From a virus (lineage: Duplodnaviria > Heunggongvirae > Uroviricota > Caudoviricetes), in the IMG/VR virus record IMGVR_UViG_3300031787_000010, positions 73,429-137,428 of that record: a stretch of DNA of 64,000 bases. One strand, given 5' to 3'. Under the pieces are notes generated by a model. It was not told the origin of the DNA. It saw only the letters and a program-made list of their open reading frames with translations, and searched no databases. This document shows, piece after piece, positions 25,266 to 60,961 of the stretch. The position numbers were made by a program, and so were the translations under genes. Within the stretch, counting starts at the first letter, position 1. Every line of letters starts with the position of its first letter.

Positions 25266-25293
25266 AGAAATGACCTCGCAGAAGTATACTCTA

Positions 25294-25322
25294 AATATAC
25301 CATCTGCGAGGCCACTTGTCAA
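25294..25322 (-). promoter_or_regulatory. sigma70 consensus promoter TTGACA-N17-TATATT upstream of the SpoU-like gene
   Basis: The -10 is bracketed by the 9-bp inverted repeat CCTCGCAGA/TCTGCGAGG (25274-25282 and 25303-25311). Confidence 0.5.
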
Positions 25323-25327
25323 GTCTA

Positions 25328-25654
25328 TTAAATACCATTTAATTTGGTACATTCAAAGTTTAGCCCATACGAAATCCTATAATAAGGATATATTAGTCTG
25401 TCTATAAGGGGGAAACAATATAAATCTTTTTTATAGCCCCGTAGGATTACTTCAACCGTATCAGCTTTTCTAGCATACCCAATATCAGTTGAATCAATAT
25501 CGGCGAATAACGTATGATTTTTGTGGTAAATCGTTTTTTGATTTTTGTTGACAATGACTTCCAAACTATCATATGTTTTTCTGTCGTAGGAATAAACGAC
25601 TTTAATTTGACTTGTCTGTAGAGCGAGACTAAACGTTATAGCTTTTATGAACAC
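25328..25654 (-). CDS. hypothetical protein (108 aa)
   Basis: ORF between the secreted protein gene and the SpoU promoter. Confidence 0.3.
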   Translation of the reverse strand: MFIKAITFSLALQTSQIKVVYSYDRKTYDSLEVIVNKNQKTIYHKNHTLFADIDSTDIGYARKADTVEVILRGYKKDLYCFPLIDRLIYPYYRISYGLNFECTKLNGI

Positions 25655-26262
25655 ACTTCGTTCTCAATCGTTCCGCCCGTAGTTGTCCACGACAAACACA
25701 TTTTATTTGCCACTCGTTGCTTTGCTCCACCAGTAGAACGTTGGTCCACGGGAATTGTATTGTAGTATTCAATACACTTTGGAATAACCAAATCTCTATC
25801 TCGCATTACTGTAGTACCATCTGCAAACTTAATGAAGGCGCAAAACTGTACTTGACGAGTGACGCTCGTTGAATCAATAGTGACTGTTTTAGGATACACC
25901 GACAATCCGCTGGGTACATAGTATGCATCTGCGTCGAAATAGAAATTCACATTTGCCGGCGGACTTACAATATTTCTACGGACGTTTACCAACAAGAATC
26001 TGTATGTGGTTGTGTCGGTTGGAATAGTAAATCGAATAGTGTCTGGTGACTGTGTTCGTCTGTATAAGATTGGAACCGTATCACTCGACAGAAAGACTGC
26101 TACCATCGTACTATCAACCGCCTCTCGTTGTGTCCAAGTCAATTGAAATGCAATTTGTCGAGAGGCGGTTAACATACTGACCGATGCGACCGGTCGGGTT
26201 GGTTGTGCATATGCTGTAGTGGAAATCACTAATGTTGCAAGAATACTAGATAACCATTTCAT
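25645..26262 (-). CDS. secreted protein with a Sec signal peptide
   Basis: MKWLSSILATLVISTTAYA|QP signal peptide. Thr/Ser-rich. Confidence 0.5.
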   Translation of the reverse strand: MKWLSSILATLVISTTAYAQPTRPVASVSMLTASRQIAFQLTWTQREAVDSTMVAVFLSSDTVPILYRRTQSPDTIRFTIPTDTTTYRFLLVNVRRNIVSPPANVNFYFDADAYYVPSGLSVYPKTVTIDSTSVTRQVQFCAFIKFADGTTVMRDRDLVIPKCIEYYNTIPVDQRSTGGAKQRVANKMCLSWTTTGGTIENEVCS

Positions 26263-26278
26263 AGTAACCTCGTAAATA

Positions 26279-26941
26279 CTATTGTGGAATAATCGTTAAG
26301 TAGGTGGTGTTTCCTAGTTTGTATATACTAACTCCATTTTTGTAACTTCCAAACATAGAGTTGTACGATTGTTCATTTATCAATCTTGTATTTGCATTAT
26401 TTTGAAATAGGACAGATGACATACTTCCTATTACGGGCGCAGCTGGTATTACAATGGTATCCACCTTAATAGAGTCAGGTGGTAACGGTGCTCGGTCGCC
26501 TCTTCTTACAAAGAGCTTTCCAATTCCAGGCGTTGTGGATTGTAAACTACGACGAACTGACCACACGTTCGACGTAAGTGTAACCGTATCGTTTATCTTT
26601 TTTAGGGAAATACGAACAGTATCGGCCAATCCATTTACCTGCTTAAGTGTAGGTAAATTTCCAGTAGTAGAGTCTGTTACGACTTTTGATGATACCATCG
26701 TGTGTCTGTAAAATTCTGGTGCACCAAATGGGTCATTTGGAGCTTTCCACGAAACACGAATATTGATGTTCGTGTCCGTGGCGGTGATGATACTAGACAA
26801 CATCGAAAATGATACTCCAGCGTCATCCGGCGGTATTACTGGGTCTACCGCTTGTGTTGATGAGTCTGAACACGCATACAGAACCGTAATTGCAATAAAA
26901 AGAATACCTTTGAGCTTTGCAGAAACTCCGTTGCGAGTCAT
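26279..26941 (-). CDS. putative lipoprotein
   Basis: Lipobox LYAC after an N-terminal hydrophobic region. Confidence 0.5.
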   Translation of the reverse strand: MTRNGVSAKLKGILFIAITVLYACSDSSTQAVDPVIPPDDAGVSFSMLSSIITATDTNINIRVSWKAPNDPFGAPEFYRHTMVSSKVVTDSTTGNLPTLKQVNGLADTVRISLKKINDTVTLTSNVWSVRRSLQSTTPGIGKLFVRRGDRAPLPPDSIKVDTIVIPAAPVIGSMSSVLFQNNANTRLINEQSYNSMFGSYKNGVSIYKLGNTTYLTIIPQ

Positions 26942-26984
26942 ACAATAAACCTCTGGTCATTTTGTGGAAATAACCATTAGTATC

Positions 26985-27006
26985 TATAAATAGTAATGTA
27001 TTACTA
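26985..27006 (-). promoter_or_regulatory. plus-strand TATAAATA motif overlapping the 7-2-7 palindrome TAGTAAT-GT-ATTACTA, upstream of the lipoprotein gene
   Basis: Seen directly in the sequence. Confidence 0.3.
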
Positions 27007-27042
27007 TCTAGTCCTATACTATGTTTATTATATTTTCTTAAT

Positions 27043-27918
27043 CTACTTTTTCACCCCAACGGAACACAATTCTTTCTTATCCCGATATACACACCACCGA
27101 CATGCCTCTTTACTCGGGGTTGCTTTCTGTTCCGTGATGTAGTTACCCTCCTCGTCGAAAGCCGTGTCTACGAATTGCTGGAATCGATCCCAATTCTTGT
27201 TTAGCGAAGGCGTCTTGTTGGGTGGTTCAAACTTACTGACGCGTGGGATTGGATATGGAGAGTTCTCGAAAATCGTACGCTTGAGAATAATAAACTCTAC
27301 CGAAATACTGTCAATATCGACTCCCTCTTGTTGTGCGAAGAACGTCTTGTATAGAAGCAACTGTCCAACCTTATACGGGTCAGTCTTTGTTTTTTGGTCC
27401 CAGCCAGCCCGTGACGTTTTCAAATCATATAGAACATACTTGCCCGTCAGTTCGTTATACGTCACGATGTCAATGTATCCGATATAGTTTACGCCAGGTT
27501 TGATTTCGGCATGAAGTTCGTATTCGATACCAAAGAGCCGCGTATTAGACGTAGGAAAGATTTTCTTATAGTTCTGTTGGATGTAAGTAATAATCTGACA
27601 GCCTTGTTCGTAATACTCCATCAACGTTTTCTTATCGGACAGAAAGGTTTTCTCCCCATTAGCATCAATAATTACATTTTCCTTAAACAAGGTAATGAGC
27701 TTATCTTTGAACGTGTCATGTAAATACACGGACTTGGCAACAGTCTCACTCTTGTTATACAATGTGTCTAGCCACTCTTGCACCACTTCGTGAATAGCTG
27801 TACCGAAGATGGTATTGATAGACGTATCATCAAACTTGTGTCCATCAATATACTTCAACTTCCACGCTTGGGGACAATTCGCCCACATTGTATATTGACT
27901 ATAACTAATCTTGTTCAT
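27043..27918 (-). CDS. Cas4/RecB-like PD-(D/E)XK exonuclease with a C-terminal Fe-S cysteine cluster
   Basis: GYIDIV...YDLKTS nuclease core, N-terminal Cys (ANCPQAW), and C-terminal CRWCVYRDKKELC. Confidence 0.7.
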   Translation of the reverse strand: MNKISYSQYTMWANCPQAWKLKYIDGHKFDDTSINTIFGTAIHEVVQEWLDTLYNKSETVAKSVYLHDTFKDKLITLFKENVIIDANGEKTFLSDKKTLMEYYEQGCQIITYIQQNYKKIFPTSNTRLFGIEYELHAEIKPGVNYIGYIDIVTYNELTGKYVLYDLKTSRAGWDQKTKTDPYKVGQLLLYKTFFAQQEGVDIDSISVEFIILKRTIFENSPYPIPRVSKFEPPNKTPSLNKNWDRFQQFVDTAFDEEGNYITEQKATPSKEACRWCVYRDKKELCSVGVKK

Positions 27919-28148
27919 TCGATACCATCCAGTATTTTCTGCATCGTTTTCTGTTCACGCTTGCCGTATGAATTTACGGGTGTTTTATTATTTGTGTGGT
28001 CTAGTATAATTTGTACAGCATCCTTCACCACTTGTAAATCATTGACTCGAAATTCCAACGGACCATGACCTTCCAGTTCAATAAGGATACTCATCTTGCC
28101 CGTAAACTTCAAGTGGAACTCTTCTGGTTTAGTTTTCTTCTTTGGCAT
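27915..28148 (-). CDS. hypothetical protein (77 aa)
   Basis: Start overlaps the upstream gene. Confidence 0.4.
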   Translation of the reverse strand: MPKKKTKPEEFHLKFTGKMSILIELEGHGPLEFRVNDLQVVKDAVQIILDHTNNKTPVNSYGKREQKTMQKILDGIE

Positions 28149-28536
28149 CGTTATCGTCCTTTAGGGGAAGGTCACCGTTTTTAGCGTGTTCGTCGCAAGA
28201 AGTATAATACCAATGCCGACCACGAACAGCACCAGGCTTTCCGCAGGCTTCACAAATCTTAAAACTACGATTCTCAACTTCATGTAGAAATTTTTCAAAC
28301 TTATAAACAGGATGGTTTTCATCCATCTCATAGCCATCAATATATACACGGAGTCCACCATACTTCTCTTTGACCTGAACAATCTTGACGGTGTTCAGCT
28401 GTAGCTTTTCCTTCTTGTCAAAGATTTCGTCAATCAAACCAACCCACCCCGTACCAACACTACGTTTGGCAAGGTCACGGTCGTATCCGCCATCTTCGTA
28501 AATTACAAAACCAGGAAGTCTAGGTTCTTTACTCAT
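28129..28536 (-). CDS. hypothetical protein with a C-terminal zinc ribbon
   Basis: Start set at MSKEP (GAGGA RBS 7 nt upstream). CEACGKPG...CDEH. Confidence 0.45.
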   Translation of the reverse strand: MSKEPRLPGFVIYEDGGYDRDLAKRSVGTGWVGLIDEIFDKKEKLQLNTVKIVQVKEKYGGLRVYIDGYEMDENHPVYKFEKFLHEVENRSFKICEACGKPGAVRGRHWYYTSCDEHAKNGDLPLKDDNDAKEEN

Positions 28537-28564
28537 AAAAATCCTCATATCTGTGGTATTTTGA

Positions 28565-28593
28565 AATATAACATCTAGTAATTTAGAAGTCAA
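28565..28593 (-). promoter_or_regulatory. sigma70 promoter TTGACT-N17-TATATT in the divergent region
   Basis: Minus strand cTTGACTtctaaattactagatgtTATATT. A minus-strand TATAAATA lies just upstream at 28613..28606. Confidence 0.5.
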
Positions 28594-28657
28594 GTCGAAC
28601 TATTTGATATTTATACTAGGAGTTAATCTTGTATTTTCATATTAATAAGGTAATAAA

Positions 28658-30025
28658 ATGTCCCAGCACAAGATAGTCAAGATACCAGATTGGGTATTGC
28701 CAGATGTAGAGGGGTATTTAAATGATGTTGGTAAGGAAGGATGGGAATTAGTCCATCTATATAACCAACACGCATATCTAAAGTCTACCGCAGTAGGGTC
28801 TATATCTAGCGGTTCTCTGAATGCAGCCGTTGATGCGTTCGGACGTACCCGTATGTCGGAACCATTTACGTTGGGTGATTATAAACACACCTATGGAATT
28901 GAAGATGTATTCCTCAATAAATTAAACGGTGATGGTTCTGTGACCAATAATATTAATCGGTCATCCGTCACGATTGCCGCAACAAGTAGTACAAGTTACG
29001 CTATTCATCAAACTAAAATGTATCACCATTATATGCCTGGCAAGAGTCAATTGATTCTTTCCAGTTTCATATTTGGTTCACCAGTAAGTGGGTCCACCAA
29101 ACGTACAGGATATTTTGACGACTACAATGGTATTTTCTTGGAACAAGACGCAACCGGTAGTTTACAAATCGTTATTCGTTCTGCTACCAACGGCACGGGG
29201 TCGGTAACAGAACAACGTGTCAAACAAGAAAACTGGAATGTGAATACGTTATTGGATGGTGACTTCACATTAGATGTAACCAAGACGCAATTATTCTACG
29301 TTGATTTCCAATGGTTAGCAGTCGGCCGCGTTCGTTGTGGGTTCGTACACAAGGGTATTACAGTTCTTACTCACGTATTTGACCACACGAATATTTTAAA
29401 TGTGGCATATATGCAGAATCCCAATCTTCCCGTTCGGTGTGAAATTAGAAACTCGGTGACTACCGCATCATACATGGAACAAATCTGTTCTACGGTCGCA
29501 AGTGAAGGTGGGTATAGTGAAGCAGGTAAAGCATACTCCATATCTAACGAATCATTCCGTACCTTATCAAGTGGTTCCACATTACCCGTACTTGCAATCC
29601 GATTAAAGAACTCGGTGAACGGATTACCAAATCGTGCATTTATTCGTATTCAAGAAGCGGCAGTGTTTACGGACCAACAAACGATACGATACACCTTAAC
29701 GAAACTACCAAGTGGGTCAATGTTAACCACTAGTAGTGCATGGGTATCGGTAGATAACAATACTTCTGTTGTGGAATATAATGTAAGCGCTACAGGATAT
29801 AGTGATGGAAAAACTTTATTGACCGGATTTGTTGGAGCAAACTCGTTGAATATCAATCAAGCAAATCCATTAGTACAAAATCAATCCGGTGTTACCAACA
29901 AACAAAACTTTATCGCACAAAATTACGATAGTACAGATAGTGAAATCTATGTATTAATCGCAAAGAATATGACTGCCGACTCAACAAATGTTGGTGGAAC
30001 GATGTTATGGTCCGAAATTTATTAA
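28658..30025 (+). CDS. hypothetical protein, possibly structural (455 aa)
   Basis: The only long plus-strand ORF; Ser/Thr/Asn/Gly-rich with a beta-rich composition; no enzymatic motif. Confidence 0.5.
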   Translation: MSQHKIVKIPDWVLPDVEGYLNDVGKEGWELVHLYNQHAYLKSTAVGSISSGSLNAAVDAFGRTRMSEPFTLGDYKHTYGIEDVFLNKLNGDGSVTNNINRSSVTIAATSSTSYAIHQTKMYHHYMPGKSQLILSSFIFGSPVSGSTKRTGYFDDYNGIFLEQDATGSLQIVIRSATNGTGSVTEQRVKQENWNVNTLLDGDFTLDVTKTQLFYVDFQWLAVGRVRCGFVHKGITVLTHVFDHTNILNVAYMQNPNLPVRCEIRNSVTTASYMEQICSTVASEGGYSEAGKAYSISNESFRTLSSGSTLPVLAIRLKNSVNGLPNRAFIRIQEAAVFTDQQTIRYTLTKLPSGSMLTTSSAWVSVDNNTSVVEYNVSATGYSDGKTLLTGFVGANSLNINQANPLVQNQSGVTNKQNFIAQNYDSTDSEIYVLIAKNMTADSTNVGGTMLWSEIY

Positions 30026-30044
30026 CCCTTGTAGAGTATAAAAT

Positions 30045-30248
30045 ATGCCATTTCAATATTATGTAGCACAAATGCCATCTGGGTCTATGAACAGAACGTG
30101 GTTGAACAATGTAGGTTCAAATGTATCACATTCTTTTACAGGTGCACCGACCGGTAGCTGGAACCTTGTAAATGTAATTCCTATGTCACCTATCAACGGT
30201 GAAGGTGGTGGTACTGTTATGTGTTATTTTGTGTCTGGTTCTTATTAA
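30045..30248 (+). CDS. small Gly-rich protein (67 aa)
   Basis: Follows the 455-aa gene after a 19-nt gap. Confidence 0.4.
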   Translation: MPFQYYVAQMPSGSMNRTWLNNVGSNVSHSFTGAPTGSWNLVNVIPMSPINGEGGGTVMCYFVSGSY

Positions 30249-30441
30249 TTAATTCTAGTTCCAGCTCATTTATTTTGTTTCGAACCTCGTCTATACTACT
30301 TGGACGTTCGAGGTGTTCGTAAATTAAATTGTCACCAACGGCAACCGTTATATGAAACGATACTGGGGAATCCTGCAATATTGCATAGTGATTCCCCATT
30401 GTCGTTTTCCCTGACTCTTTACCAGTATACAGTTGATGCAT
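30217..30441 (-). CDS. hypothetical protein (74 aa)
   Basis: Supported by a TAATG coupling with the upstream small ORF (30441..30569). Confidence 0.35.
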   Translation of the reverse strand: MHQLYTGKESGKTTMGNHYAILQDSPVSFHITVAVGDNLIYEHLERPSSIDEVRNKINELELELINKNQTQNNT

Positions 30442-30569: not shown

Positions 30570-30570
30570 A

Positions 30571-32246: not shown

Positions 32247-32247
32247 A

Positions 32248-33066
32248 TTACATAACCTGTTGTTTGTTTGCCCAGCCGTTATCCACACCTTGTAGCACTT
32301 CTATCTTGTCCATCTTCCCATCTTTTACATACACCTTCTGGATAAGTTGTGTGTATTCTTTAATATCCTTATACGACATAATAGGAATCTTCAAATCGTT
32401 TAGTATCCGTTTCTTCTCTTTCTTATTACAGAGGAAATAGATGTATCGATGTTTTGCCGTTTCTTCTTTACGCCAGAATGTATGTCCAATCGTACTGGCA
32501 AGGTTCTCTACGTTTTTATTTCCGTATCGCTCCCCTACTGTACGACTATGAATCCAATCACTATGTTCAAACAATCTGATGGAATAATCAGGCATCAGCT
32601 TCGATACACCACATCCTTGATATAACCAATTCGTTGCCCGATAGATAGTTCCCGTGTGTTCTTGTTCTGGGTCAGCGTAACTCACCAAGACTTTCACTTC
32701 TGGCGCGTTGTACTTTAACCACCGAAAGGATTCCCCAAGAAAATGACTTTCCAAGTTCTTCCCATATCCATCCAAACACACTAACCGAGTAAGTTCCAAC
32801 ACCTCATCCAGTTCTAACGGATGAGTTTTTGTAATAGAAGCTACTGTGCGATTACTTACGGGATGTCCATATGTCATTACGCCAATAAGCTTTTCACTCT
32901 GTCCTTCAAAGAATGAATGTGATTCTTCGATATGATAGAGCCCTAACGCATATCGACAACTAGACGACTTATGCGTGTAATGATGTTTAATGATAAACGA
33001 CGCCGCCACATCTTTGTTGATATGGCGGACAATCGTTTTACCAGTATTGACGTAACCTTCTTCCAT
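32248..33066 (-). CDS. conserved hypothetical protein (possible acyltransferase-like fold)
   Basis: 272 aa with a YADPEQEHTGTIYRATNWLYQG motif; function not recognised. Confidence 0.4.
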   Translation of the reverse strand: MEEGYVNTGKTIVRHINKDVAASFIIKHHYTHKSSSCRYALGLYHIEESHSFFEGQSEKLIGVMTYGHPVSNRTVASITKTHPLELDEVLELTRLVCLDGYGKNLESHFLGESFRWLKYNAPEVKVLVSYADPEQEHTGTIYRATNWLYQGCGVSKLMPDYSIRLFEHSDWIHSRTVGERYGNKNVENLASTIGHTFWRKEETAKHRYIYFLCNKKEKKRILNDLKIPIMSYKDIKEYTQLIQKVYVKDGKMDKIEVLQGVDNGWANKQQVM

Positions 33067-33647: not shown

Positions 33648-33648
33648 T

Positions 33649-45645: not shown

Positions 45646-45674
45646 GCATACTCCAAAGAATAGGGGATGAATGA

Positions 45675-45703
45675 AATATATCACTCATCCCCCAATTTGT
45701 CAA
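45675..45703 (-). promoter_or_regulatory. sigma70 consensus promoter TTGACA-N17-TATATT
   Basis: The -10 is bracketed by the 8-bp inverted repeat GGGGATGA/TCATCCCC (45663-45670 and 45685-45692). Confidence 0.5.
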
Positions 45704-45722: not shown

Positions 45723-46451
45723 TTATTTGTGAAATTCTTTTATTATAATATTATTATTGTGGTCAATAATAACTGCTGTTAAATTCTCCACCCAATCCCC
45801 AGAGTTTACATAATGAACACCTGCAATTTGTCTATTCTCTGGTTTATGGATATGTCCGCATATAACACCAGAACAATTATTCTGGCGAGCGAGTTTTATA
45901 GCACTTACTTCAAAGTCGGTTATATAGTTGACTGCCGCTTTCACTCCATTCTTAATATCCTTGGAAATAGAGTAGTACGGAAGTTTTCTCCACTTTCTCC
46001 ATTTATTATATAAGGTATTAATACGAAGGGCGAGTTCATATCCACTTGCTCCAATCTTTGCAATCCACTTCCACTTGGCAACGAATACGTCCAGAATGTC
46101 TCCGTGGAAGATAAAGTATTTCTTTCCTTCACCCAAGTCAAGGATATAGTTTTCTTCTACTTGGAGTTTTCCCAAGTGCATATGCATGAATTCGTGTAAG
46201 AACTCATCGTGATTTCCACGTATCCAGACTACAGGTATCTTTCTGGAAATGTCTAGTATCTTTGAGATCACCTTCGTGTGTTTTGCTCTCCACTTATACC
46301 CCTTTGCCAACGCCCACCCGTCAACAAAGTCTCCGTTAATAATAAGGATATCGGTGTGATTTTCATTTAAGAATTCCAATAACTCTGCTGCTTTACTTGC
46401 CTCGGTCCCTAAATGCACATCAGAGATGATAATTGCTTTGTGGTGTTTCAT
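45723..46451 (-). CDS. calcineurin-like metallophosphoesterase
   Basis: DVHLG, GDFVDG and GNHDE motifs. Confidence 0.7.
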   Translation of the reverse strand: MKHHKAIIISDVHLGTEASKAAELLEFLNENHTDILIINGDFVDGWALAKGYKWRAKHTKVISKILDISRKIPVVWIRGNHDEFLHEFMHMHLGKLQVEENYILDLGEGKKYFIFHGDILDVFVAKWKWIAKIGASGYELALRINTLYNKWRKWRKLPYYSISKDIKNGVKAAVNYITDFEVSAIKLARQNNCSGVICGHIHKPENRQIAGVHYVNSGDWVENLTAVIIDHNNNIIIKEFHK

Positions 46452-46452
46452 A

Positions 46453-47217
46453 CTAGTTCCAGTAATTTACTTTGGCTTTTTCAAAGTGTTTGAGATTATT
46501 TCTATTGAAGAAGTTGACGGTCATATACCATAGCATCCCCAAGTATCCTAACTTCTTGAATCGACGTTCATCTTGACCGAAGTAGTGGTCACCGATTTGA
46601 AAATATTTAGCATGATATTCTCTGCTCAATATATAATCTTCTGATGTCTCATACTTGTTCGGAAATGCACCGAAGTACTCAAATGCATCTCGTCTAGTGA
46701 GAAAGAATGCCCCAATCGCAAATGGAGTTTTTTTGGTCATAATCTTATTGATAATATTGAATGCCCAGAAAAAGAATGAAGCACGTAAATCACTTCCATA
46801 ATTTTTGATGTTCAATGTCATCAAATCCAGATTGAATGTTCGCATCTGATATAAGGTATCACTAATCGCTCGTGGATGAAAGAATCGGACATCAGCATCC
46901 AAGAACAGTATATACGGAGTAGTAACTAATTTCGCACCGTTGTTTCGTCCAACAGATACATTTCCACCTTTGATGACTTCGATATTGAGGTCACCCTTGT
47001 ACGTGTTTATAAGAGGGACAGTAGCATCGGTACTATCGGCATCTGCGATAATGATGCGGACATCTCCAATATCGTGCTGTTGAAGCAAATCTTCCAATAA
47101 AGGGACAATATAGTTTTCTTCATTCTTACACGGGATAACAATCGTCAGTAAATCTTTCATACGCACCTCATTGGGGGTGTTTATATACATATCAAAACGC
47201 AAACCACTCCGACGCAT
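46453..47217 (-). CDS. glycosyltransferase family 2
   Basis: LTIVIPCKNEE...DADSTD...LDADV GT2 motifs. Confidence 0.65.
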   Translation of the reverse strand: MRRSGLRFDMYINTPNEVRMKDLLTIVIPCKNEENYIVPLLEDLLQQHDIGDVRIIIADADSTDATVPLINTYKGDLNIEVIKGGNVSVGRNNGAKLVTTPYILFLDADVRFFHPRAISDTLYQMRTFNLDLMTLNIKNYGSDLRASFFFWAFNIINKIMTKKTPFAIGAFFLTRRDAFEYFGAFPNKYETSEDYILSREYHAKYFQIGDHYFGQDERRFKKLGYLGMLWYMTVNFFNRNNLKHFEKAKVNYWN

Positions 47218-49714
47218 TCTGATTGACTTCGGTGGGAATGTTTCCCCATTTCAGTGCGGAATAAAAATCATCCAATTTATTTCTTAATTCATTATCGAAC
47301 AAGGCATCGGTATCGATATACTGTTGAATAAAGTCGGTGATTTGTGGAGGATCTTGATATCCCTTAACTGCTACCGCTTCAATCTGTAACGGGTTCTTTT
47401 TCAGATAAACATACTTAATCTTTTCACCATCTGAAATCGGTTCGTATCGGTCATCGATTCCAAAGTGTACCAGCAATCGATTATAGATAATAGCCGACTT
47501 AATGTGGGCGGGAGTAGACTTCTTTGCCGCCTTCAACCCCACCACGTTATCCATTACATATTCAGAGATGTTATTTGCCGCAGTATTTCGAGCAATATCT
47601 AGATAGTTTCTATCATCCAACGATGCCTTGAACTCCAAGATTTTAGTGTCCATTTCCTCTTTATGCATACCCTTCAAAATATCCTTCAACATCTGACGCA
47701 TGAAGTCACCAAATGCTTTCGGGAAACTTGAACGAACTACATCCAATCCCTTAACCACCATCTTACTGACATCTTGACTCGTTTCCAAATCATACACCTT
47801 ATCAAGTGCATATCGCTTCTTTGATACCCAGAACCCCGTAGATGCAACGGATTCACCCTTGATGTAAAAACGATGCGAATTGCAATTAAAAGCACGTTTT
47901 GCGAACGTGTCATAAAATTTATTTAACAATGCTTCCATCTCACGTGCTTTTTCAATCGTAAACTGCTTTGCATCAGCGTCTGGTGGAAGGATAGGTTTTG
48001 CTGAAGCATAGATGGAGTCGGTGTCGATATACGTTACATAGTCCCCCGCCTCTCCCAACAACTTTTCATACTGCTTGTTTACTAATTTGGCACTAGATTT
48101 AATAACGTCTTGTCCTGTAATTGTAACCGCAGCAGCGTTGTCAACGTCATAGAAACGGAACACAGGCAACCCAAGAACACCATACAACGAATTCAAGAAA
48201 ATCTTCTGAATATGTTGGCGTCGGTCATAATAGTCTGCCATTTCCTTGTTTCCTTCGTTGACATACTTCTTCATCGTGTTCTTATATTCGACACGCTGAC
48301 TAAACCACGTATCAAGAACTTCTGGAATAATACCCTTCTTATCGTTCGTATACAGTACACCATTCGAACTTACCGATAGATTATTATCCGTAATGAATTC
48401 CATAAATGTATCGTAGTCCATTTCCATAGAAGAGTCTGTACCCTTTTCCTCAACAACATAAGCAGTAATCTCTTTACGGAAATGTTGTTCCATATTCCAG
48501 TTCCGAACAAATCCAATCTTCGTTTCTGGGCTGATGTTAAGACTCATAATGATGGATGGATACAGCGATTGCAAGTCGAGAGAATATACCCAATCATACA
48601 AACCAGGTACCGGCTCTTTCACATATGCACCGATAAACCCTTCCTCTCCACGGTCAAGTGCTTCCATCTTCTCACGACTATCTTGCGGTTTATCCGTCAC
48701 GATAATTCCCTTACGATGAAGGTAAGTGACGATGGTGCCTTCGAGGAATCGTGACGACATTGGATAGTCCTCATACGGCACGTGTCCGATGTGACAAATA
48801 CCACGCACAAGTTCGATGAGCTTCAACTTCTTGTCAAGCTCAACAATGATACGCACGTCTTGTAGGTTATACTCAATAAACTTATCAAGGTCATCTCGAA
48901 ACAATTGATCGAGAGAACCTTCATATGGAATCTTACCCATATTGACTTCAATGCGACCAATTGTATCAAGTCGATAGTTTGGTTGCTGTGTATAAGTAAA
49001 CTTCTTGTATAGGTCAAGATAGTCCAGCGAACTTACTCCAGCAATTCTATATTTTTCCTGTCGTTCGGAATATTTTACCTTACCGATTGGGGACAGCCGA
49101 TTGGCAACAGAGGGACCGCAGACTTGTCGGATACGATTATACAAATATGGTACGTCGAAATAGTTACTATTCCAACCGGTGATGATTGTGGGTTGAATTT
49201 CTTCGTACAAGGAGATGAACTTATGGAGTAAGTCAACTTCCGTAGGACAGAATATCGTATCCACTTCTTCCGTCATTCTATTGTCGTACAACTTTGTTGT
49301 ATCAAGTACGAACACCGTGTATTTGTTTGTTGTTGGATCATATGCAGCAATTGAAGTGATTTCATTATTAGGCTTATGAATATTTGGAATACCATTTGCC
49401 ATCGACACCTCAATATCGAAAAACATCACAATGTTCCCTTCGGACGGCGTATCCTCGTCTAGATAAACATCCGTCAACACCCGTGTTTCTTTTGGCAAGT
49501 CACTCTCAAACACGTTTGGGTGTCCACGCATAAATCGGCGTGTCTTACTCAAACGTTCACCCGTCATACTTATAAACTTGCCCTTCGGGTCTTTTACATA
49601 TGCATAATTGAAATCTGCCCACGGCAAAATAATCAACCCCTGTTTATCGTCCCAAATATAAACAGTAGGTGATTCATCACCGTGCATATCAACATATATG
49701 TTTTTATAAGCCAT
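47192..49714 (-). CDS. family-B DNA polymerase with 3'-5' exonuclease
   Basis: Exo I FFDIEV, pol motif B KIFLNSLYGVLG, motif C YIDTDSIY; 840 aa. Confidence 0.9.
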   Translation of the reverse strand: MAYKNIYVDMHGDESPTVYIWDDKQGLIILPWADFNYAYVKDPKGKFISMTGERLSKTRRFMRGHPNVFESDLPKETRVLTDVYLDEDTPSEGNIVMFFDIEVSMANGIPNIHKPNNEITSIAAYDPTTNKYTVFVLDTTKLYDNRMTEEVDTIFCPTEVDLLHKFISLYEEIQPTIITGWNSNYFDVPYLYNRIRQVCGPSVANRLSPIGKVKYSERQEKYRIAGVSSLDYLDLYKKFTYTQQPNYRLDTIGRIEVNMGKIPYEGSLDQLFRDDLDKFIEYNLQDVRIIVELDKKLKLIELVRGICHIGHVPYEDYPMSSRFLEGTIVTYLHRKGIIVTDKPQDSREKMEALDRGEEGFIGAYVKEPVPGLYDWVYSLDLQSLYPSIIMSLNISPETKIGFVRNWNMEQHFRKEITAYVVEEKGTDSSMEMDYDTFMEFITDNNLSVSSNGVLYTNDKKGIIPEVLDTWFSQRVEYKNTMKKYVNEGNKEMADYYDRRQHIQKIFLNSLYGVLGLPVFRFYDVDNAAAVTITGQDVIKSSAKLVNKQYEKLLGEAGDYVTYIDTDSIYASAKPILPPDADAKQFTIEKAREMEALLNKFYDTFAKRAFNCNSHRFYIKGESVASTGFWVSKKRYALDKVYDLETSQDVSKMVVKGLDVVRSSFPKAFGDFMRQMLKDILKGMHKEEMDTKILEFKASLDDRNYLDIARNTAANNISEYVMDNVVGLKAAKKSTPAHIKSAIIYNRLLVHFGIDDRYEPISDGEKIKYVYLKKNPLQIEAVAVKGYQDPPQITDFIQQYIDTDALFDNELRNKLDDFYSALKWGNIPTEVNQNASEWFAF

Positions 49715-49728: not shown

Positions 49729-49777
49729 AGTTTCACTCTTAAATATACAAAAACCCTCAACCGAAGTCAAGGGTTTT
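49729..49777 (-). terminator. composite terminator/promoter upstream of the polB gene
   Basis: Hairpin AAAACCC...GGGTTTT followed by UGUAUAUUU starts at the stop codon of the upstream gene. Inside it lies TTGACT-N17-TATATT (-35 at 49765-49770, -10 at 49742-49747). The polB RBS is ACGAGG. Confidence 0.55.
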
Positions 49778-50198
49778 AGTTTTGGTCTGACATTACTCCA
49801 CACGGCTGTCTGAATGGGAAATCGGGGTGTCCTAAATATCCAATAGCGTGTAAACTTTCGTGTACTAATATCCAGCGTTTATTACGACTTGGGTAAGGAA
49901 GATAAATAGCTGAATCAGTTGGATTAAAAAATCCTGCCAAATCAATACTACCATCTACTGCCTGTACTCGTAATTTCGAAGAGGGAATAACTACCCAGTA
50001 TATATCTTCATATTTCAGTTTAGGCTGTTTTGTATTACTACATTCCACGGCATCATTATAAGCCCGTCGCCTTATAACTTCTAGTTTAGTATTTTCTTCT
50101 GGAGTAATTTCTGGATATGGTTTTGAGCCAAAAATAACAATTAATACTATTAATATAATAGCAGTTAAAACAAGTATTAGTTTAGCTCTAGTTGTCAT
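49776..50198 (-). CDS. membrane-anchored metzincin-like zinc metallopeptidase
   Basis: N-terminal transmembrane helix and HESLHAIGYLGH (HExxHxxGxxH). Confidence 0.5.
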   Translation of the reverse strand: MTTRAKLILVLTAIILIVLIVIFGSKPYPEITPEENTKLEVIRRRAYNDAVECSNTKQPKLKYEDIYWVVIPSSKLRVQAVDGSIDLAGFFNPTDSAIYLPYPSRNKRWILVHESLHAIGYLGHPDFPFRQPCGVMSDQN

Positions 50199-51009: not shown

Positions 51010-51391
51010 TTTTGTTTATCAACTTCTTTATTTTGTTTCTAACTGATTTGGTGTTTCCGTTTATTTCCGATTCCCACAACGATAAAAACTTAAACCCTAG
51101 TGATTCAAAATGAGTTTTTCTACACTCATCTCTCTTCCATATTTGTGCTGCAGTTTTCTTTTTACCTCTATTGAAAAAATCATATGAGTATTTCTGTGGA
51201 TTGCAATGCCAGAAATCTCCATATACTTCTATAATATATTTATCTTCTACTAAAAAGTCAACATTGTATTTGTCAATAGAAGTTTGAATCTTAAAAGAGA
51301 CATTCATCTCTTTTAGCATATTATAAATTTTAGTTTCTATGTTGTTGAGAGAACTAATAGACTGTTTTTTAAGTTTGGGCTTTCGGCCCAT
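50960..51391 (-). CDS. Vsr/DUF559-type PD-(D/E)XK endonuclease (possible homing-endonuclease-like insertion)
   Basis: VDFLVEDKYIIEVYGDFWH ... GFKFLSLWESEI matches the DUF559 pattern. It sits between two thioredoxin genes. Confidence 0.55.
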   Translation of the reverse strand: MGRKPKLKKQSISSLNNIETKIYNMLKEMNVSFKIQTSIDKYNVDFLVEDKYIIEVYGDFWHCNPQKYSYDFFNRGKKKTAAQIWKRDECRKTHFESLGFKFLSLWESEINGNTKSVRNKIKKLINKNGDSYGYRNNNERHAA

Positions 51392-54353: not shown

Positions 54354-54368
54354 AACCTCTAAATTGTT

Positions 54369-56234: not shown

Positions 56235-56267
56235 ATCGGTTAAAGTTTATAGGTTCTAATAAGTATA

Positions 56268-57656
56268 TCACTCTTCGTCAGAAAAATCGCTGTGTAATTC
56301 ATTAAATTTCTTCGCCAACGTTTTCTTTAACATACTCTCTCCAGCCTGCATTTGCTTCTTCAACAAAATACCCTTTGAGGAGTTTTCATCATATATTTCA
56401 ATCTTACCGAGGCTAGTATTCATGTATACGGGAAGCGTAATACCGTCAGCCCCAAATCGATTCTTCATTAAGTGTGCACGACCTGTGTGATTGGCTTTAT
56501 CTTCTAGCTTACGGGATAGGGAGATTACGAGGTCGGCGGTCATAATCTTATTGTAGGATTCGGAAATCTTATCGGCCTGAATGATGTCATCCTGAATACT
56601 AGAACGTTGAGTTTGTGAGGCCGTCCAACACGGAATACCCAACTCACCACTCATTCCACGAATTTCTTCATAGATGGCACCCAACTCTTGATAACGGGCA
56701 TCTGCTCTATCCACAGACCGCATCAAATCAGCGTAGTCAATCAACATAATATCCGGCTTCATCTTATTACCGATTAAGTGTTCAAGATGTGCTCGAAGTG
56801 TGTGTACAGTTACACTACGTGCAGGATAATACTTGATAATAATATCGCCAGGTATGTTATCTACCATATCACGCACTTTATCTGGATGGCTTGTGATACT
56901 ACCAGGTTCGATTCCCGTAAAGATGGTATCATATCGAAGCCCAACGTAATTTTCATTTAATTCAAGTGTATAGTGTACAACACGTTTTCCAGCTTTAGCA
57001 GCATTTGCTCCAATCGTAGCAAGCGCCCAACTCTTACCAATACCAGAAGGTGCGGCAATGACTCCAAGCTCTCCAGCAGCCAATCCACCACCCGTGAACG
57101 CATCAATAGCGTCCCAACCCGTTGGTACACAAATACGAGAGACGCCAGCAAGACGCATCGCAATATCTTCTTTCCAATTATGTCCGATATTACGAGGTTG
57201 TCCTGCTCGGAGTGCCCCATCAATAATATTTTTGATTTCACCATATTGACCAACTTGCAAAAGATCAACAGATTTTACAATCGCAGACTTTAATGCTTGA
57301 TTCTTTGCAAAGTCCAAGAAACTATCCTTAACGTATTCCAAATCATCATCGTTCTTTCTTTGGAATGCGGTACGAAGTTGCTCTTTTACAGCAACCTTCA
57401 AAACTTCATCCTTTTCCTTTTCTAACTCAAGCTTAAAAACCTCAAGTGTTGGAAGGGACTTGTAATTACCAAAATAATTTATAGTTTCTTCGACAATCCA
57501 TTTACCAGCATCATTCTCAAAAAAGTTTGGATTCAACACATCAAGTGATTGCTGCAAAAATTCAGTAGATGACAAAATACATGCCATTACCTTTGCTTGA
57601 AATGAAGGACCAAACTTTGCTAGATTGTCTACGTTCGTATCATGCTGTGGAGTCAT
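56268..57656 (-). CDS. DnaB-family replicative helicase (gp41-like)
   Basis: Walker A APSGIGKSW and a DnaB C-terminal fold pattern. Confidence 0.85.
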   Translation of the reverse strand: MTPQHDTNVDNLAKFGPSFQAKVMACILSSTEFLQQSLDVLNPNFFENDAGKWIVEETINYFGNYKSLPTLEVFKLELEKEKDEVLKVAVKEQLRTAFQRKNDDDLEYVKDSFLDFAKNQALKSAIVKSVDLLQVGQYGEIKNIIDGALRAGQPRNIGHNWKEDIAMRLAGVSRICVPTGWDAIDAFTGGGLAAGELGVIAAPSGIGKSWALATIGANAAKAGKRVVHYTLELNENYVGLRYDTIFTGIEPGSITSHPDKVRDMVDNIPGDIIIKYYPARSVTVHTLRAHLEHLIGNKMKPDIMLIDYADLMRSVDRADARYQELGAIYEEIRGMSGELGIPCWTASQTQRSSIQDDIIQADKISESYNKIMTADLVISLSRKLEDKANHTGRAHLMKNRFGADGITLPVYMNTSLGKIEIYDENSSKGILLKKQMQAGESMLKKTLAKKFNELHSDFSDEE

Positions 57657-58692
57657 TGTGGAACCTATTTAATGGTATAAAATTCTGAGCTATCCAACTG
57701 TCGTAATGTTGGAAACCTCCTAGTAACTTATTCTTCATCATCAACTTTGTCAAGTCGTATTTACGCAACTCAACAGTATGATTATGAAACATATTCGCAA
57801 CTTTTAAACGTGCATCGTTTGACATAATTCCTTCATGCAAGTTCATTAATACTATATTACGTTCAACTATATCTTTATTACCTAAAATGTTTTGTATCAT
57901 CTTGGGTACTTTCTTTTCATTTGCATATTTTTGTTCAATAAAATCAATAGAGATGGTTGCCGATGGATCTGCGATTTCTGGAATATACTTCTTTAATGTA
58001 GTTTCTCCAACGCCTTTTACTCCATCAATGTTATCACTCTTGTCACCGTTTAATGCACGGAAGAAGTGAAAGTGTGCGGGATGAATACCATAATCTTCCA
58101 AGATAACATCCACATCAAATGTTTTCTTTTTAACAGGATTATATACCTTGACGTTTTCACTTGCTAGCTGAAAGAAGTCTTTATCCGTTGAATAGATAAT
58201 ACTCTTCCCACCTTCTTGTGTAACCAGTTGTGAAAGATATGCAATCACATCGTCTGCTTCCACGTTATCCAACGCAAGAATTGTCAACGGTAAACATTCT
58301 AACATTTCTATCAGAGTGACCAATTGCCACTTCATATTTTCTTTTTCTTGCTCATCCGTTGTTAAATCATATGCACGATTCAAACGCACTGGTGGCTTTC
58401 GGTTTGCCTTGTACTGTGGGTATATCTTACGTCTGCGTTGACTTCCACCTTTCCCGTCAAACACGACAACACAACGTGTCGGTTTAAAGGTACGGATGGC
58501 AAGACCAAGACTCTTAAGAAATCCCATCATTCCACCAATATGATTACCATCTTCATCCATCGAAGGAACAGCGGCATAAGAACGTATGAATAAATTCATC
58601 GCATCGATTAACAGGACATGGGAATTATATCCCATGCCCTGCTCGTCGTTTTCAAACTTCATATTTTGAAATATATCTTGTAAGTTAACCAT
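57640..58692 (-). CDS. RNase H / 5'-3' flap endonuclease (T4 rnh-like)
   Basis: LLIDAMNLFIRSY and acidic cluster motifs of the FEN family. Confidence 0.8.
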   Translation of the reverse strand: MVNLQDIFQNMKFENDEQGMGYNSHVLLIDAMNLFIRSYAAVPSMDEDGNHIGGMMGFLKSLGLAIRTFKPTRCVVVFDGKGGSQRRRKIYPQYKANRKPPVRLNRAYDLTTDEQEKENMKWQLVTLIEMLECLPLTILALDNVEADDVIAYLSQLVTQEGGKSIIYSTDKDFFQLASENVKVYNPVKKKTFDVDVILEDYGIHPAHFHFFRALNGDKSDNIDGVKGVGETTLKKYIPEIADPSATISIDFIEQKYANEKKVPKMIQNILGNKDIVERNIVLMNLHEGIMSNDARLKVANMFHNHTVELRKYDLTKLMMKNKLLGGFQHYDSWIAQNFIPLNRFHNDSTA

Positions 58693-58906
58693 TTAGTAAT
58701 TGCCTTGTGGTAGTACTTTTTGTTTCAGGAGAATATTTCCATCCGAACAAAAGTCTTACCATAAATTTATGAAACCAATTTGGATGCTTCTTATATACTG
58801 GAAATCGTGTACCACCGATATCCCAATGTCCCACATGCAACGCTGGAACAATAGCGGCATGTGAGAAATTGGAATAGGTCCGTGTATTATTCGTCGTCTG
58901 ATGCAT
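58685..58906 (-). CDS. hypothetical protein (73 aa)
   Basis: ORF coupled between uvsX and rnh. Confidence 0.35.
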   Translation of the reverse strand: MHQTTNNTRTYSNFSHAAIVPALHVGHWDIGGTRFPVYKKHPNWFHKFMVRLLFGWKYSPETKSTTTRQLLNG

Positions 58907-60023
58907 CTGCGATACTCACTGCTTCAGGATCAAACTCACTCTGATACTTCATAATTAACGAATCACAAATCTCGTTGTAGAGTAGTTCCTTACGTTCCAT
59001 ATCTGATTCAAGGAATCCTGCGAACTCCTTCGATTGGAATTTGGTTTCTTCACCCGTTTCAGGATCTTCATAGGTGTACCACGCACCAGCTTGCTTCACA
59101 AGCTTCAAATCCTTCATCATCTTAAGCCACGCACCCGTATCATCAATACCACGATTGAAGTAAATCTCAAACTCAGCAGTACGATGCGGCGGTCCCAAAC
59201 GATTCTTCACAATGTTTGCTTTCACCTTTACACCAATTACATCACCCGATGAGTTATTAATCTTTCCCATCAAATTCAATCGGAGACGAGTCGAAGCATG
59301 GAACGCAATCGCCTTACCACCCGAGGTTGTCCACGGGTCAGAGAATGCCATAGCGTTGAGCTTCTGACGGAGTTGATTGGTAAAGACGAGTGCAATCTTT
59401 TCTCTGCCAAGTAGGCCGGTAATCTTTCGCATCGCCTTACTGATGATGATAGCCTTGTCCGTTGCATACCCATCCTTACCGAAGTCGGCTTCCATTTCTT
59501 TCTTCGTCGAAGCTGCGGCAACAGAGTCCACGACAATCGTAACCAACTTGTCCTTATCCTTTCCAGAACGGACTTTTTCAATAATTGTAGTAATTGCATC
59601 AAAGATTTCCTCAACAGTCTGGAGATGAACATAAACCAGCTTGTTCGTATCAATCCCAACTGCACGGAAGAACTCTGGATTGACTGCGGTTTCTGTGTCA
59701 ATCAGAACACCAACACCACCGCGTTTCTGTGTGTTTGCAATGAGCTGTGCACCGAGTAGAGACTTACCACTACCTTCCAATCCCGTCAATTCGGTAATAC
59801 GACCAACAGCGATACCACCATGCGGACGATTACTAATAGCAACGTCAAGCATCGTAGCACCGGTAGAAATAAAATCTGTAAAGTCGGTAGGCGTTTCTTC
59901 ACGACCATCAAGGAAGAATGCAATCTGGTCGCTGTCTTTGTTTAACTTGTTTAGTGACTCTGCGATAAGAGACGCCAACTCGTCGCGGTCTGGTTCTTGA
60001 ATAACCTTCTTTTCTTTTGCCAT
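58887..60023 (-). CDS. UvsX/RecA-family recombinase
   Basis: GRITELTGLEGSGKSLL Walker A. Start set at MAKEKK (60023), which has a GAGGA RBS and removes the overlap with the gp32-like gene. Confidence 0.85.
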   Translation of the reverse strand: MAKEKKVIQEPDRDELASLIAESLNKLNKDSDQIAFFLDGREETPTDFTDFISTGATMLDVAISNRPHGGIAVGRITELTGLEGSGKSLLGAQLIANTQKRGGVGVLIDTETAVNPEFFRAVGIDTNKLVYVHLQTVEEIFDAITTIIEKVRSGKDKDKLVTIVVDSVAAASTKKEMEADFGKDGYATDKAIIISKAMRKITGLLGREKIALVFTNQLRQKLNAMAFSDPWTTSGGKAIAFHASTRLRLNLMGKINNSSGDVIGVKVKANIVKNRLGPPHRTAEFEIYFNRGIDDTGAWLKMMKDLKLVKQAGAWYTYEDPETGEETKFQSKEFAGFLESDMERKELLYNEICDSLIMKYQSEFDPEAVSIADASDDE

Positions 60024-60061
60024 ATATGTCCTCAAATGTGAAAACGCAAGGGTACCCCACA

Positions 60062-60091
60062 AATATAGTAGGGTACCACCTGCGTTGTCAA
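60062..60091 (-). promoter_or_regulatory. sigma70 promoter TTGACA-N18-TATATT upstream of uvsX
   Basis: The -10 is bracketed by the GGTACCC/GGGTACC inverted repeat (60051-60057 and 60071-60077). Confidence 0.5.
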
Positions 60092-60096
60092 GTGTA

Positions 60097-60879
60097 TTAG
60101 TTAAATACTTCGTCGAATTCGTCAATCATATCTTTGACTGACGTTGACTTCTGCGTAGTCGCAGACTTTGTTGCTGTCACGGACTTTGGTTCGTCCTTAG
60201 CGACAGGCGCCGATACCGTTGCCTTACTATCAGGGTCAAGATAACGCTCGAGAGCGACCTTAAGCTCCTCATAAGTGGGTTCCTTAAAGATTGCACGAAG
60301 GTCGGGCTGATTCTCAAGGCATCCCTTGATCTTGTCAGCGGAATCCGAAAGCGGAGTCTGGTTCGGCTTTGGACGAACCATCGTCTTGGCGAAGTTCGTG
60401 TCGGACTTCTCCTGTGGGATATACTCAACCACAATATCACGACCATTCTTTACGTCTGTGATGTCGCCGTAATCGGGGTCAGCGATGATAGAAAGAAGTT
60501 CCTGATAAACCGTCTTACCGAATGACATAAATCGAACACCCTTCTCTTCCTCACCACGAACGACGATGGGAACAAAGGTACGGAGCTTCGGACGGAAAGG
60601 ACGAGCCTGTGCGTAATCGTCTTTAGTACCTCCCGACGCAATCTCCTCAGCGAATTCCATAATCGGATCGCGATTACCATACGAGGTCGGGGAAAGATAG
60701 GTCTTGTTACCTAGATAATGAAAATACAGTTCAGCAAAAGGATTTTCCTTGTTTTCCTTCCACGGAACAATACGAACGACCGTCTTACCTTCGGTCGGCT
60801 TCCAAAGTGCTTCTGAACGTTCACCCTGGCGATTAAACTGGTTAAGTTTAGCTTTTAGTGCGGCAATGTTTAGACTCAT
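60097..60879 (-). CDS. gp32-like single-stranded DNA-binding protein
   Basis: N-terminal pattern KLNQFNRQGE..LWKPTEGKTVVRIVPWKENKENPFAELYFHY parallels the T4 gp32 N-terminus; an acidic C-terminus is also present. Confidence 0.65.
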   Translation of the reverse strand: MSLNIAALKAKLNQFNRQGERSEALWKPTEGKTVVRIVPWKENKENPFAELYFHYLGNKTYLSPTSYGNRDPIMEFAEEIASGGTKDDYAQARPFRPKLRTFVPIVVRGEEEKGVRFMSFGKTVYQELLSIIADPDYGDITDVKNGRDIVVEYIPQEKSDTNFAKTMVRPKPNQTPLSDSADKIKGCLENQPDLRAIFKEPTYEELKVALERYLDPDSKATVSAPVAKDEPKSVTATKSATTQKSTSVKDMIDEFDEVFN

Positions 60880-60932
60880 TTTACTTCTCCTTAATGTTTA
60901 GTGTTTAGTGAGTTTACAACTCCCTATCAATA

Positions 60933-60961
60933 ATATTAATAGGGCCCTGCTTATATGTCAA
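60933..60961 (-). promoter_or_regulatory. sigma70 promoter TTGACA-N17-TAATAT upstream of the gp32-like gene
   Basis: The -10 is bracketed by CCCTAT/ATAGGG (60922-60927 and 60939-60944). The long 5'UTR contains the AAACACT direct repeat. Confidence 0.5.

Follow-up and report, generated by a model that had tools for sequence, protein, structure and literature searches.

The window analyzed here is a 64,000-nucleotide (nt) stretch of an uncultured Caudoviricetes phage genome (positions 73,429 to 137,428 of the IMG/VR record IMGVR_UViG_3300031787_000010), in which short modules at gene boundaries combine an RNA hairpin with a promoter of the host σ70/σA type. Judged from sequence comparisons, these modules are probably terminators or attenuators for incoming polymerases, each nested in the promoter that restarts the next gene, a design described in T4-type phages as the promoter-early stem-loop (PeSL). 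The evidence comprises a strand-restricted and strongly enriched promoter motif, an association of hairpins with those promoters that follow a co-directional gene, and covariation of the stems among relatives in which the promoter hexamers remain fixed.

Promoters and their hairpins

A sequence-only reading of the window had proposed nine promoters at operon starts, six of them with an inverted repeat bracketing the −10 or −35 hexamer. All nine promoters were present at the coordinates claimed and all were on the minus strand, which carries nearly all of the genes; read on that strand, they follow TTGAC(A/T)-N17(18)-TA(T/G/C/A)A(T)T and are upstream of a Shine-Dalgarno (SD) sequence and a start codon. 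The six inverted repeats were likewise found in the sequence, with strengths that differ (z −1.19 to −6.47, the TTTGGGG repeat at promoter 4542 being weak), and stronger hairpins of 37 and 39 nt at promoters 2163 and 4542 had been overlooked. The z-scores compare the folding of 105-nt segments with that of 200 dinucleotide shuffles, and ΔG denotes folding free energy. Modules and promoters are listed below, each named by the first base of its −35 hexamer.

60043–60091, minus strand: recA/uvsX-like module (60091), ahead of gene 58887–60023; −35 TTGACA at 60091–60086, N18 spacer, −10 TATATT at 60067–60062; hairpin AACGCAGGTGGTACCC/GGGTACCCTTGCGTT with its 5′ arm (60086–60071) in the spacer and its 3′ arm (60057–60043) past the −10, then TTTCAC; ΔG −30.3, the strongest 50-nt window of the minus strand, z −6.47; gp32 stop codon 6 nt upstream of the −35
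60922–60961, minus strand: gp32-like module (60961), ahead of gene 60097–60879; −35 TTGACA at 60961–60956, −10 TAATAT at 60938–60933; 6-bp stem CCCTAT (60944–60939)/ATAGGG (60927–60922) flanking the −10, weak alone (z −1.19); leader with CTAAACA repeats and SD downstream of the stem
49742–49777, minus strand: polB module (49770), ahead of polB (47192–49714); hairpin AAAACCCTTGAC-TTCG-GTTGAGGGTTTT at 49777–49750, enclosing the −35 TTGACT (49770–49765), z −1.68, flagged by a terminator scan; −10 TATATT at 49747–49742, within the T-rich tail
45661–45703, minus strand: ligase-operon module (45703), ahead of a small open reading frame (ORF) and the ligase operon; −35 TTGACA at 45703–45698; −10 TATATT at 45680–45675, exactly the loop; terminator-like stem GGGGGATGAGTGA/TCATTCATCCCC of 14 pairs, 45693–45681 with 45674–45663, z −3.69; tail TATTCTTT, next SD GGAG
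25272–25322, minus strand: module (25322) ahead of the SpoU-type methyltransferase gene 24654–25262, which opens a ~20-kb co-directional run; −35 at 25322–25317, −10 at 25299–25294; outer stem GGCCTCGCAGA/TCTGCGAGGTC, 25313–25303 with 25282–25272, ΔG −29.0, z −5.45; inner stem, 25301–25295 with 25289–25283, SD GAGG within the 3′ arm
2135–2200, minus strand: module 2163; −35 TTGACA at 2163–2158, −10 TAGATT at 2140–2135; 37-nt hairpin GGGACGTAAGGC-13 nt-GCCTTACGTCCC at 2200–2164, abutting the −35, z −4.25
4498–4581, minus strand: module 4542; −35 TTGACT at 4542–4537, −10 TACATT at 4519–4514; 39-nt hairpin at 4581–4543, a second copy of the 2163 hairpin, abutting the −35, z −5.24; weaker repeat TTTGGGG/CCCCAAA, 4537–4531 with 4504–4498, with a 26-nt loop
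28565–28593, minus strand: hairpin-free promoter TTGACT-N17-TATATT (28593) in a divergent intergenic region, z +0.12
5610–5638, minus strand: thymidylate synthase promoter TTGACA-N17-TAGATT (5638), overlapping the end of the upstream gene, no hairpin, z +1.34
63563–63591, minus strand: additional match TTGACA-N18-TATATT (63591) in the 3′ end of ORF 63526–63930, 38 nt from the −10 to the next start codon; z −2.33, owed to a different upstream structure
51233–51261, minus strand: intragenic match TTGACT-N17-TATATT (51261), hairpin-free, conserved in relatives L002 and L003
38563–38591, minus strand: intragenic match TTGACA-N17-TATATT (38591), hairpin-free, conserved in L002 and L003
34970–34998, minus strand: intragenic match TTGACA-N17-TATATT (34998), hairpin-free, ~100 nt before the start of a clamp-loader gene

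The motif TTGAC[AT]-N17-TATATT occurred seven times on the minus strand and never on the plus strand, against an expectation of 0.05 ± 0.22 from 100 dinucleotide shuffles. The looser form TTGAC[AT]-N16-18-TA.A[AT]T gave 13 matches where 0.62 were expected, again with none on the plus strand. Five matches (−35 starts at 63591, 51261, 38591, 34998 and 13311) had not been listed by the sequence-only reading and are within the 3′ parts of ORFs. A generic σ70 scan of the window yielded no overall enrichment (61–67 found, 55–62 expected), so that the signal is confined to the specific TTGAC…TATATT motif, the extended form of which is C-TTGAC[A/T]-N17-TATATT-T. No copy was found at the sole clear plus-strand gene, which encodes a virion structural protein (28658–30025). 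Across 725 kb from about 150 loci of relatives, the coding-oriented strand carried 131 copies of the motif and the opposite strand none. This enrichment, the strand restriction and the counts in relatives argue that the putative TTGAC…TATATT promoter class is real and family-wide. By analogy with T4-type early promoters, it would point to early or middle expression by the unmodified RNA polymerase of the host. The AT content was 70–82% at 25322, 28593, 45703, 60091 and 60961, and 45–60% at 2163, 4542, 49770 and 5638, which have a hairpin or coding sequence upstream.

At five of the nine listed promoters a strong hairpin overlaps the promoter or directly adjoins it (z −3.7 to −6.5), and when all 50-nt windows of the minus strand were scanned, five of the top eight in stability fell on listed promoters. 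A ΔG of −20 or below was reached at 5/9 promoters as compared with 2.6% of random positions (binomial p ≈ 1.5e-6). Each of the seven intergenic promoters that have a co-directional gene upstream had a hairpin. Those lacking one were the divergent 28593, the gene-end-overlapping 5638 and the intragenic promoters; z-scores were between +1.3 and −1.3 for 5638, 28593 and four of the five intragenic sites. Since 28593 is in a divergent intergenic region, no co-directional upstream gene is present there to be terminated.

Three geometries are distinguished. In the first (25322, 45703, 60091 and 60961), the 5′ arm occupies the 17-nt spacer, the −10 forms the loop, and the 3′ arm with its T-rich tail would cover approximately +1 to +25. 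In the second (49770) the hairpin extends across the −35 with the −10 within the T tail, and in the third (2163 and 4542) it abuts the −35. A polymerase arriving from the upstream gene would copy both arms and the U tract, leading to termination or attenuation, and a polymerase initiating at the embedded promoter would copy only part of the 3′ arm, form no hairpin and continue into the next gene. In this way each module would reset transcription between two genes in the space of about 40–60 nt, the spacer sequence, which is of little weight for promoter function, being used to encode one arm. For the polB unit, previously described as under 60 nt, the upstream stop codon and the polB ATG are 61 nt apart.

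The predicted start is ~7 nt past the −10, within or at the beginning of the 3′ arm, so the promoter's own RNA should be unable to form the helix. The proposal that the hairpin can form only in read-through RNA follows from this geometry, since the 5′ arm is in or before the spacer, ahead of the predicted start; the preponderance of G·U over A·C in the stems of relatives, indicative of the sense strand, is in keeping with it. A terminator role, also proposed by the sequence-only reading, fits the position after a stop codon, the T-rich tails and the hairpin-free state of the intragenic and divergent promoters. Actual initiation and termination at the modules are predictions from these features.

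Conservation and covariation in relatives

A family survey covered 89 distinct promoter contexts from the loci of uncultured relatives. The −10 was in the hairpin loop in 32 contexts, the hairpin was over the −35 or spacer in 13, and it abutted the −35 in 11. In 31 of these 32 −10-in-loop modules the −35 came 7–54 nt after a stop codon, and in the remaining one the two overlapped. Hairpins with ΔG ≤ −12 were present at 51 of 62 promoters following a stop codon, as compared with 9 of 24 intragenic promoters. Furthermore, T made up a fraction of 0.49–0.52 of the eight bases past the stem when the hairpin was of the −10-in-loop or −35 class, as compared with 0.28 in the background.

Alignments of orthologous modules were used to follow hexamers and stems separately. 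In the recA-upstream alignment (A1; 17 distinct orthologues aligned with MAFFT), TTGAC and cTAnATT were invariant, and RNAalifold predicted 14 pairs, 11 of which had compensatory double changes. Pairing was kept in 90.8% of the cells of A1, as compared with 26–45% when the 3′ partner was slid by 1–3 columns, and was matched by 0 of 500 shuffles; the sequences of this alignment and of the two that follow are related, so that shuffle counts overstate their independence. Six of seven pairs were compensated in the gp32-upstream alignment (A2), with arms such as CCCTAT/ATAGGG, CCTCGT/ACGAGG and CCCAC/GTGGG. The 45703-family alignment (A3; seven distinct relatives) had compensation at 3 of 14 pairs and many G·U pairs; the loop was exactly TATATT in 8/8 sequences of this family, and the module is kept between differing neighbor genes in relatives.

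The recA-upstream module has the same layout throughout one clade, with differing sequences and pairing held, and is absent from another clade. Upstream of polB, relatives L002, L003 and L004 have GGGACTTGA-nnn-TCAAGTCCC across the −35, in the same place as the hairpin of the window, and the dUTPase stop codon is inside the −35. The polB and gp32 hairpins are weak alone, yet both are conserved in relatives. The SpoU-upstream module was absent in every relative inspected. The suggestion that structure, not arm sequence, is conserved is thus upheld for the recA-, gp32- and 45703-type modules, in which the hexamers are invariant and the stems covary.

Among the non-Watson-Crick cells of A1, about 30 were G·U and 3 were A·C; the corresponding counts in A2 were 12 and 0. 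In 31 of 32 modules, the fold of the sense strand was stabler than that of the antisense strand (−22.0 vs −16.0 kcal/mol), in a comparison that used hairpins picked on the sense strand. From the excess of G·U over A·C and the stabler sense folds, it is concluded that selection on the stems acts on sense-strand RNA and not on duplex DNA.

The relatedness of the aligned sequences and the choice of hairpins on the sense strand both weigh against the terminator reading, as do several properties of the hairpins. Those at 49770 and 60961 are not significant alone (z −1.7 and −1.2), loops of 6–13 nt are long for intrinsic terminators, and a simple terminator scan flagged 45703 and 49770 only. The T tracts are interrupted. 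The sequence-only reading had described the repeats as mostly followed by a U-rich run, which is clear at 45703 and 49770 and moderate at 25322 and 60091, but poor at 60961 and absent at 2163, where the stem is followed by TTGACACC. At 4542, TTGACTTT comes directly after the stem, with 5 T among its 8 bases. Across the survey, the class abutting the −35 had a T fraction of 0.30, with no enrichment.

Genes and neighboring elements

The window has a G+C content of 40%, with nearly all ORFs on the minus strand and very short intergenic gaps. Replication genes include those for PolB, a gp32-like single-stranded DNA-binding protein (SSB), a bacterial-type RecA and a ligase, and are accompanied by the SpoU methyltransferase. 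Also encoded are thymidylate synthase, dUTPase, dCMP deaminase, ribonucleotide reductase, a DnaB-like helicase, clamp-loader subunits, a FEN/RNase H-like exonuclease, and a block of sugar-nucleotide and glycosyltransferase genes of ~20 kb. The phage is T4-like in its gp32-like SSB, its PolB of the T4 gp43 type and its clamp-loader subunits, but not in its recombinase, a bacterial-type RecA, or its DnaB-like helicase. Among the GenBank phages searched, none was near-identical at the DNA level. The nearest isolate is Microcystis phage Mel-JY01, with amino-acid identities of 45% (PolB) and 54% (RecA). Uncultured relatives in IMG/VR are many, with protein identities of 60–92%, and contig IMGVR_UViG_3300031857_000065 is identical across the portion of RecA that it holds.

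A PurA/PurZ-like adenylosuccinate-synthetase homologue (phrog_1211; 21220–22287) and a Mom-like DNA-modification gene (32248–33066) are encoded in addition to the ~20-kb run (5622–25262), which contains sugar-nucleotide epimerases, an aminotransferase, glycosyltransferases and a HAD hydrolase; in combination, these genes suggest DNA hypermodification or glycan synthesis. The run beyond 25322 is without a strong internal σ70-type promoter.

The hairpins at 2163 and 4542 share the form GGGA(G)CGTAAGGC-13 nt-GCCTTACG(C)TCCC, with the end of the hairpin at the exact start of TTGAC. They belong to direct repeats of ~45 nt around gene 2209–4479, with two copies only in the window, and this pair is the sole case in the window resembling a repeated cassette. 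The enclosed gene encodes 756 amino acids, has no PHROG hit and is upstream of a CobS/MoxR-like AAA ATPase. Similar units, a CGTAAG…CTTACG hairpin with TTGACA, are found elsewhere in relatives L104, L108, L113 and L116; a search of IMG/VR for the exact 2163/4542 hairpin gave 0 matches, the relatives having similar, non-identical units only.

Between the hairpin and the SD of gp32, the leader (60921–60880, minus strand) contains two or three CTAAACA(C) repeats, conserved in L006–L084. In this it is reminiscent of the translational operator of the T4 gene 32 mRNA, which is unstructured and contains repeats. Between the dUTPase gene and the polB module is a window-specific ORF (49776–50198) encoding an HExxH motif (HESLHAIGYLGH) and, at the N terminus, a hydrophobic segment; it had no PHROG or Pfam hit and no homologue among the related loci fetched.

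A further hairpin, GAGCAGGGCATGGGA-TATAAT-TCCCATGTCCTGTT (58644–58610, minus strand; ΔG about −29), is the third strongest 50-nt window of the minus strand and falls within the FEN/RNase H-like exonuclease gene (57640–58692), at codons ~17–29. It is kept in more than 25 relatives, down to ~58% protein identity, and compensatory changes even alter residues encoded by the 5′ arm; the loop always consists of Tyr-Asn codons (TATAAT, TACAAT, TATAAC or TACAAC). No −35 at usable spacing and no clear T tract were found. Its interpretation as a nested promoter was rejected, as 20–23 nt separate TATAAT from the closest −35-like hexamer, a spacing that is not conserved; possible roles of the hairpin are those of attenuator, RNase site or translational operator.

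The T4 late promoter TATAAATA was not enriched in gene orientation. Its reverse, ATATTTATA, was found 41 times on the coding-oriented strand and twice on the other in the window and relatives. Sites include 51782, 40905, 26992 and 12682 on the minus strand, one upstream of the plus-strand gene at 28658, and others in loci L014–L146. Most sites are intergenic, and the virion structural gene has the element upstream; more distant relatives have it ahead of gp32, where it replaces the σ70-type promoter, and at L104:799 it overlaps a TATATT −10. On this distribution, ATATTTATA is a candidate phage-specific, perhaps late, promoter.

No Rfam family reached the gathering threshold anywhere in the window, and ARAGORN called no tRNA. 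A tRNA-like sequence of ~105 nt (~41935–41830, minus strand) is nevertheless found inside a 389-nt stretch without a minus-strand ORF; its acceptor stem has 7 bp (GGCGGCG…CGCCGCC-A), and its T arm (GGAG-TTCGAAT-CTCC) is canonical. It received no ARAGORN call and matched no Rfam family even at E ≤ 1, and it may be an interrupted or degenerate tRNA.

Known systems and alternative readings

PeSLs are composite terminator/promoter cassettes of the T4-type phages RB49/phi1, T4/PST and KVP40/nt-1 (Arbiol 2010, PMC2839356; Comeau 2014, PMC4122927). Promoter and stem-loop were each tested separately with lacZ reporters and both were active; in RB49/phi1 the stem-loop terminated transcription as effectively as rrnB T1, the promoter gave ~13,000 Miller units of lacZ activity, and mini-circles form between PeSL copies (PMC2839356). 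The modules of the window share with PeSLs a near-consensus σ70 promoter with N17 spacing that is oriented with the downstream gene, an intergenic span from stop codon to SD and ATG, G·U pairs in the stems, and the range of stem-loop positions, each of which (between the two boxes, across the −10, across the −35, immediately upstream) is represented here. The proposed role, termination or attenuation of upstream transcription followed by re-initiation, is also the same. PeSLs are often beside variable ORFs and indels; here such an association is suggested by individual cases, in which the modules border the variable ORFs on one side.

The differences are several. The present modules belong to another, uncultured phage lineage with Mel-JY01 as its nearest isolate; their −10 is TATATT where that of PeSLs is TATAAT; and several precede core replication genes (polB, gp32 and recA) and not ORFans. 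The copies are not mutual repeats (median identity of 30% outside the hexamers among 12 window modules), barring the ~45-nt pair 2163/4542. Finally, the evidence here is orthologue covariation, which is unreported in the PeSL papers, whereas reporter assays are found in the PeSL papers only.

As in intrinsic terminators, a GC-rich stem followed by a T-rich run is positioned just past a stop codon and selection is on the sense RNA. The modules differ in loops enlarged to 6–13 nt to house the −10 hexamer, in interrupted T tracts, in a 3′ arm and tail that double as the initial transcribed region of the embedded promoter and, for the class abutting the −35, in having TTGAC in place of a T tract. 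A plain intrinsic terminator is also present in the window (337–302, minus strand; GGAAAGGGGGCCCG…CGGGCTCCCTTTTCATTTTG, a 14-bp stem with 9 G-C pairs and the tail TTTTCATTTTG), with a weaker promoter-like sequence, TTGAAA-N16-TAGTAT, ~25 nt past it, an un-nested version of the terminator-then-promoter logic. Mel-JY01 (locus L001) similarly has a terminator hairpin and T run directly before a σ70-like promoter (…CACGGGGTTTTTT-CTTGCAT-N17-TATATT), but there the elements stand side by side without nesting, and the −35 is TTGCAT. The phage literature on ONT-cappable-seq, checked for mapped nested modules, contained nothing directly relevant. The nested design is already known as the PeSL, and what is new is its occurrence in this lineage and the covariation evidence.

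Under the PeSL model, the modules might be mainly mobile or recombinogenic cassettes, crossover points that shuffle flanking ORFs with regulation a secondary matter, which is considered unlikely here. Consistent with this possibility, genes absent from the relatives' loci are immediately upstream of two modules: ORF 49776–50198 at polB, and a glycosyltransferase and phosphoesterase (45723–47217) at 45703. The distribution of modules is also patchy, with the recA-upstream one missing from a clade, the SpoU-upstream one absent from inspected relatives, the 45703 module retained despite different neighbors, and the gene pair 25328–26262 with a module located elsewhere in L116 and L117; furthermore, the 2163/4542 repeats surround a single gene. 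However, the window modules share only their hexamers, and identity of 30% outside them leaves little substrate for homologous recombination, whereas RB49/phi1 PeSLs are conserved over ~100 bp. Inserted ORFs are bordered by a module on one side only, and stem covariation indicates selection for structure, not for sequence identity.

The main rival to the terminator reading itself, and one judged decidedly unlikely, is that the hairpins are elements of RNA processing or stability, either RNase III-type cleavage sites separating cistrons or 3′ hairpins shielding upstream mRNA from exonucleases, the overlap with promoters being only compaction. Selection on sense-strand RNA suits any role at the RNA level, and several of the stems are long, reaching about 16–20 bp at 60091 and 25322 and, around loops of 13 nt, 12–13 bp at 2163 and 4542. 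The class abutting the −35 is without a T tract, making this explanation more plausible at 2163, and the similarly strong, conserved hairpin at 58644–58610 is in a coding region, where termination is unlikely. Against it, the −10-in-loop and −35 classes carry terminator-like T-rich tails, and the equivalent PeSL stem-loop terminated transcription in the lacZ assay (PMC2839356). A terminator hairpin also stabilizes the 3′ end, so the two roles are compatible.

It is very doubtful that the −10 hexamer in the loop is a functional unit in its own right, beyond compaction. In such a mechanism, σ carried by an elongating polymerase may bind the non-template TATATT and cause a pause as the 5′ arm emerges, which would increase termination of incoming polymerases only; alternatively, a phage factor could read the UAUAUU or UAUAAU loop. 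Hints of this come from the TATAAT/TACAAT-loop hairpin at 58644–58610, which has no −35, and from the 45703 family, in which the loop is always the exact hexamer.

Inverted repeats acting at the DNA level, as operators for dimeric regulators or as cruciforms gating access to the −10 or −35, would account for operator-like overlap with these hexamers. This explanation is highly improbable and was rejected: the arms differ at every site and drift among orthologues with pairing kept, the asymmetry between G·U and A·C would be meaningless for duplex DNA, and no hairpin is found at 28593, where a co-directional upstream gene is missing. Chance overlap of ordinary hairpins with promoter-like strings in AT-rich intergenic DNA, to which the unenriched generic scan and the two unremarkable z-scores might lend support, is effectively refuted by the strand-exclusive motif enrichment, the hairpin–promoter association, and an arrangement that is conserved and covaries across dozens of divergent relatives.

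A nested terminator and promoter of the PeSL type is therefore the preferred reading. It would extend the PeSL design past the classical T4-like phages to an abundant uncultured lineage of freshwater metagenomes related to Mel-JY01. To the PeSL literature it adds evidence that the hexamers do not change across orthologues, whereas the spacer and the downstream arm vary in concert as an RNA helix, suggesting that one 50-nt stretch is under two simultaneous constraints. The 5′ arm could be mutated without altering the promoter hexamers, making clean tests possible. For annotation of such phages, the modules provide a map of likely transcription units, and each may represent a compact natural 'insulator' part at which incoming transcription would be stopped and restarted at a set level.

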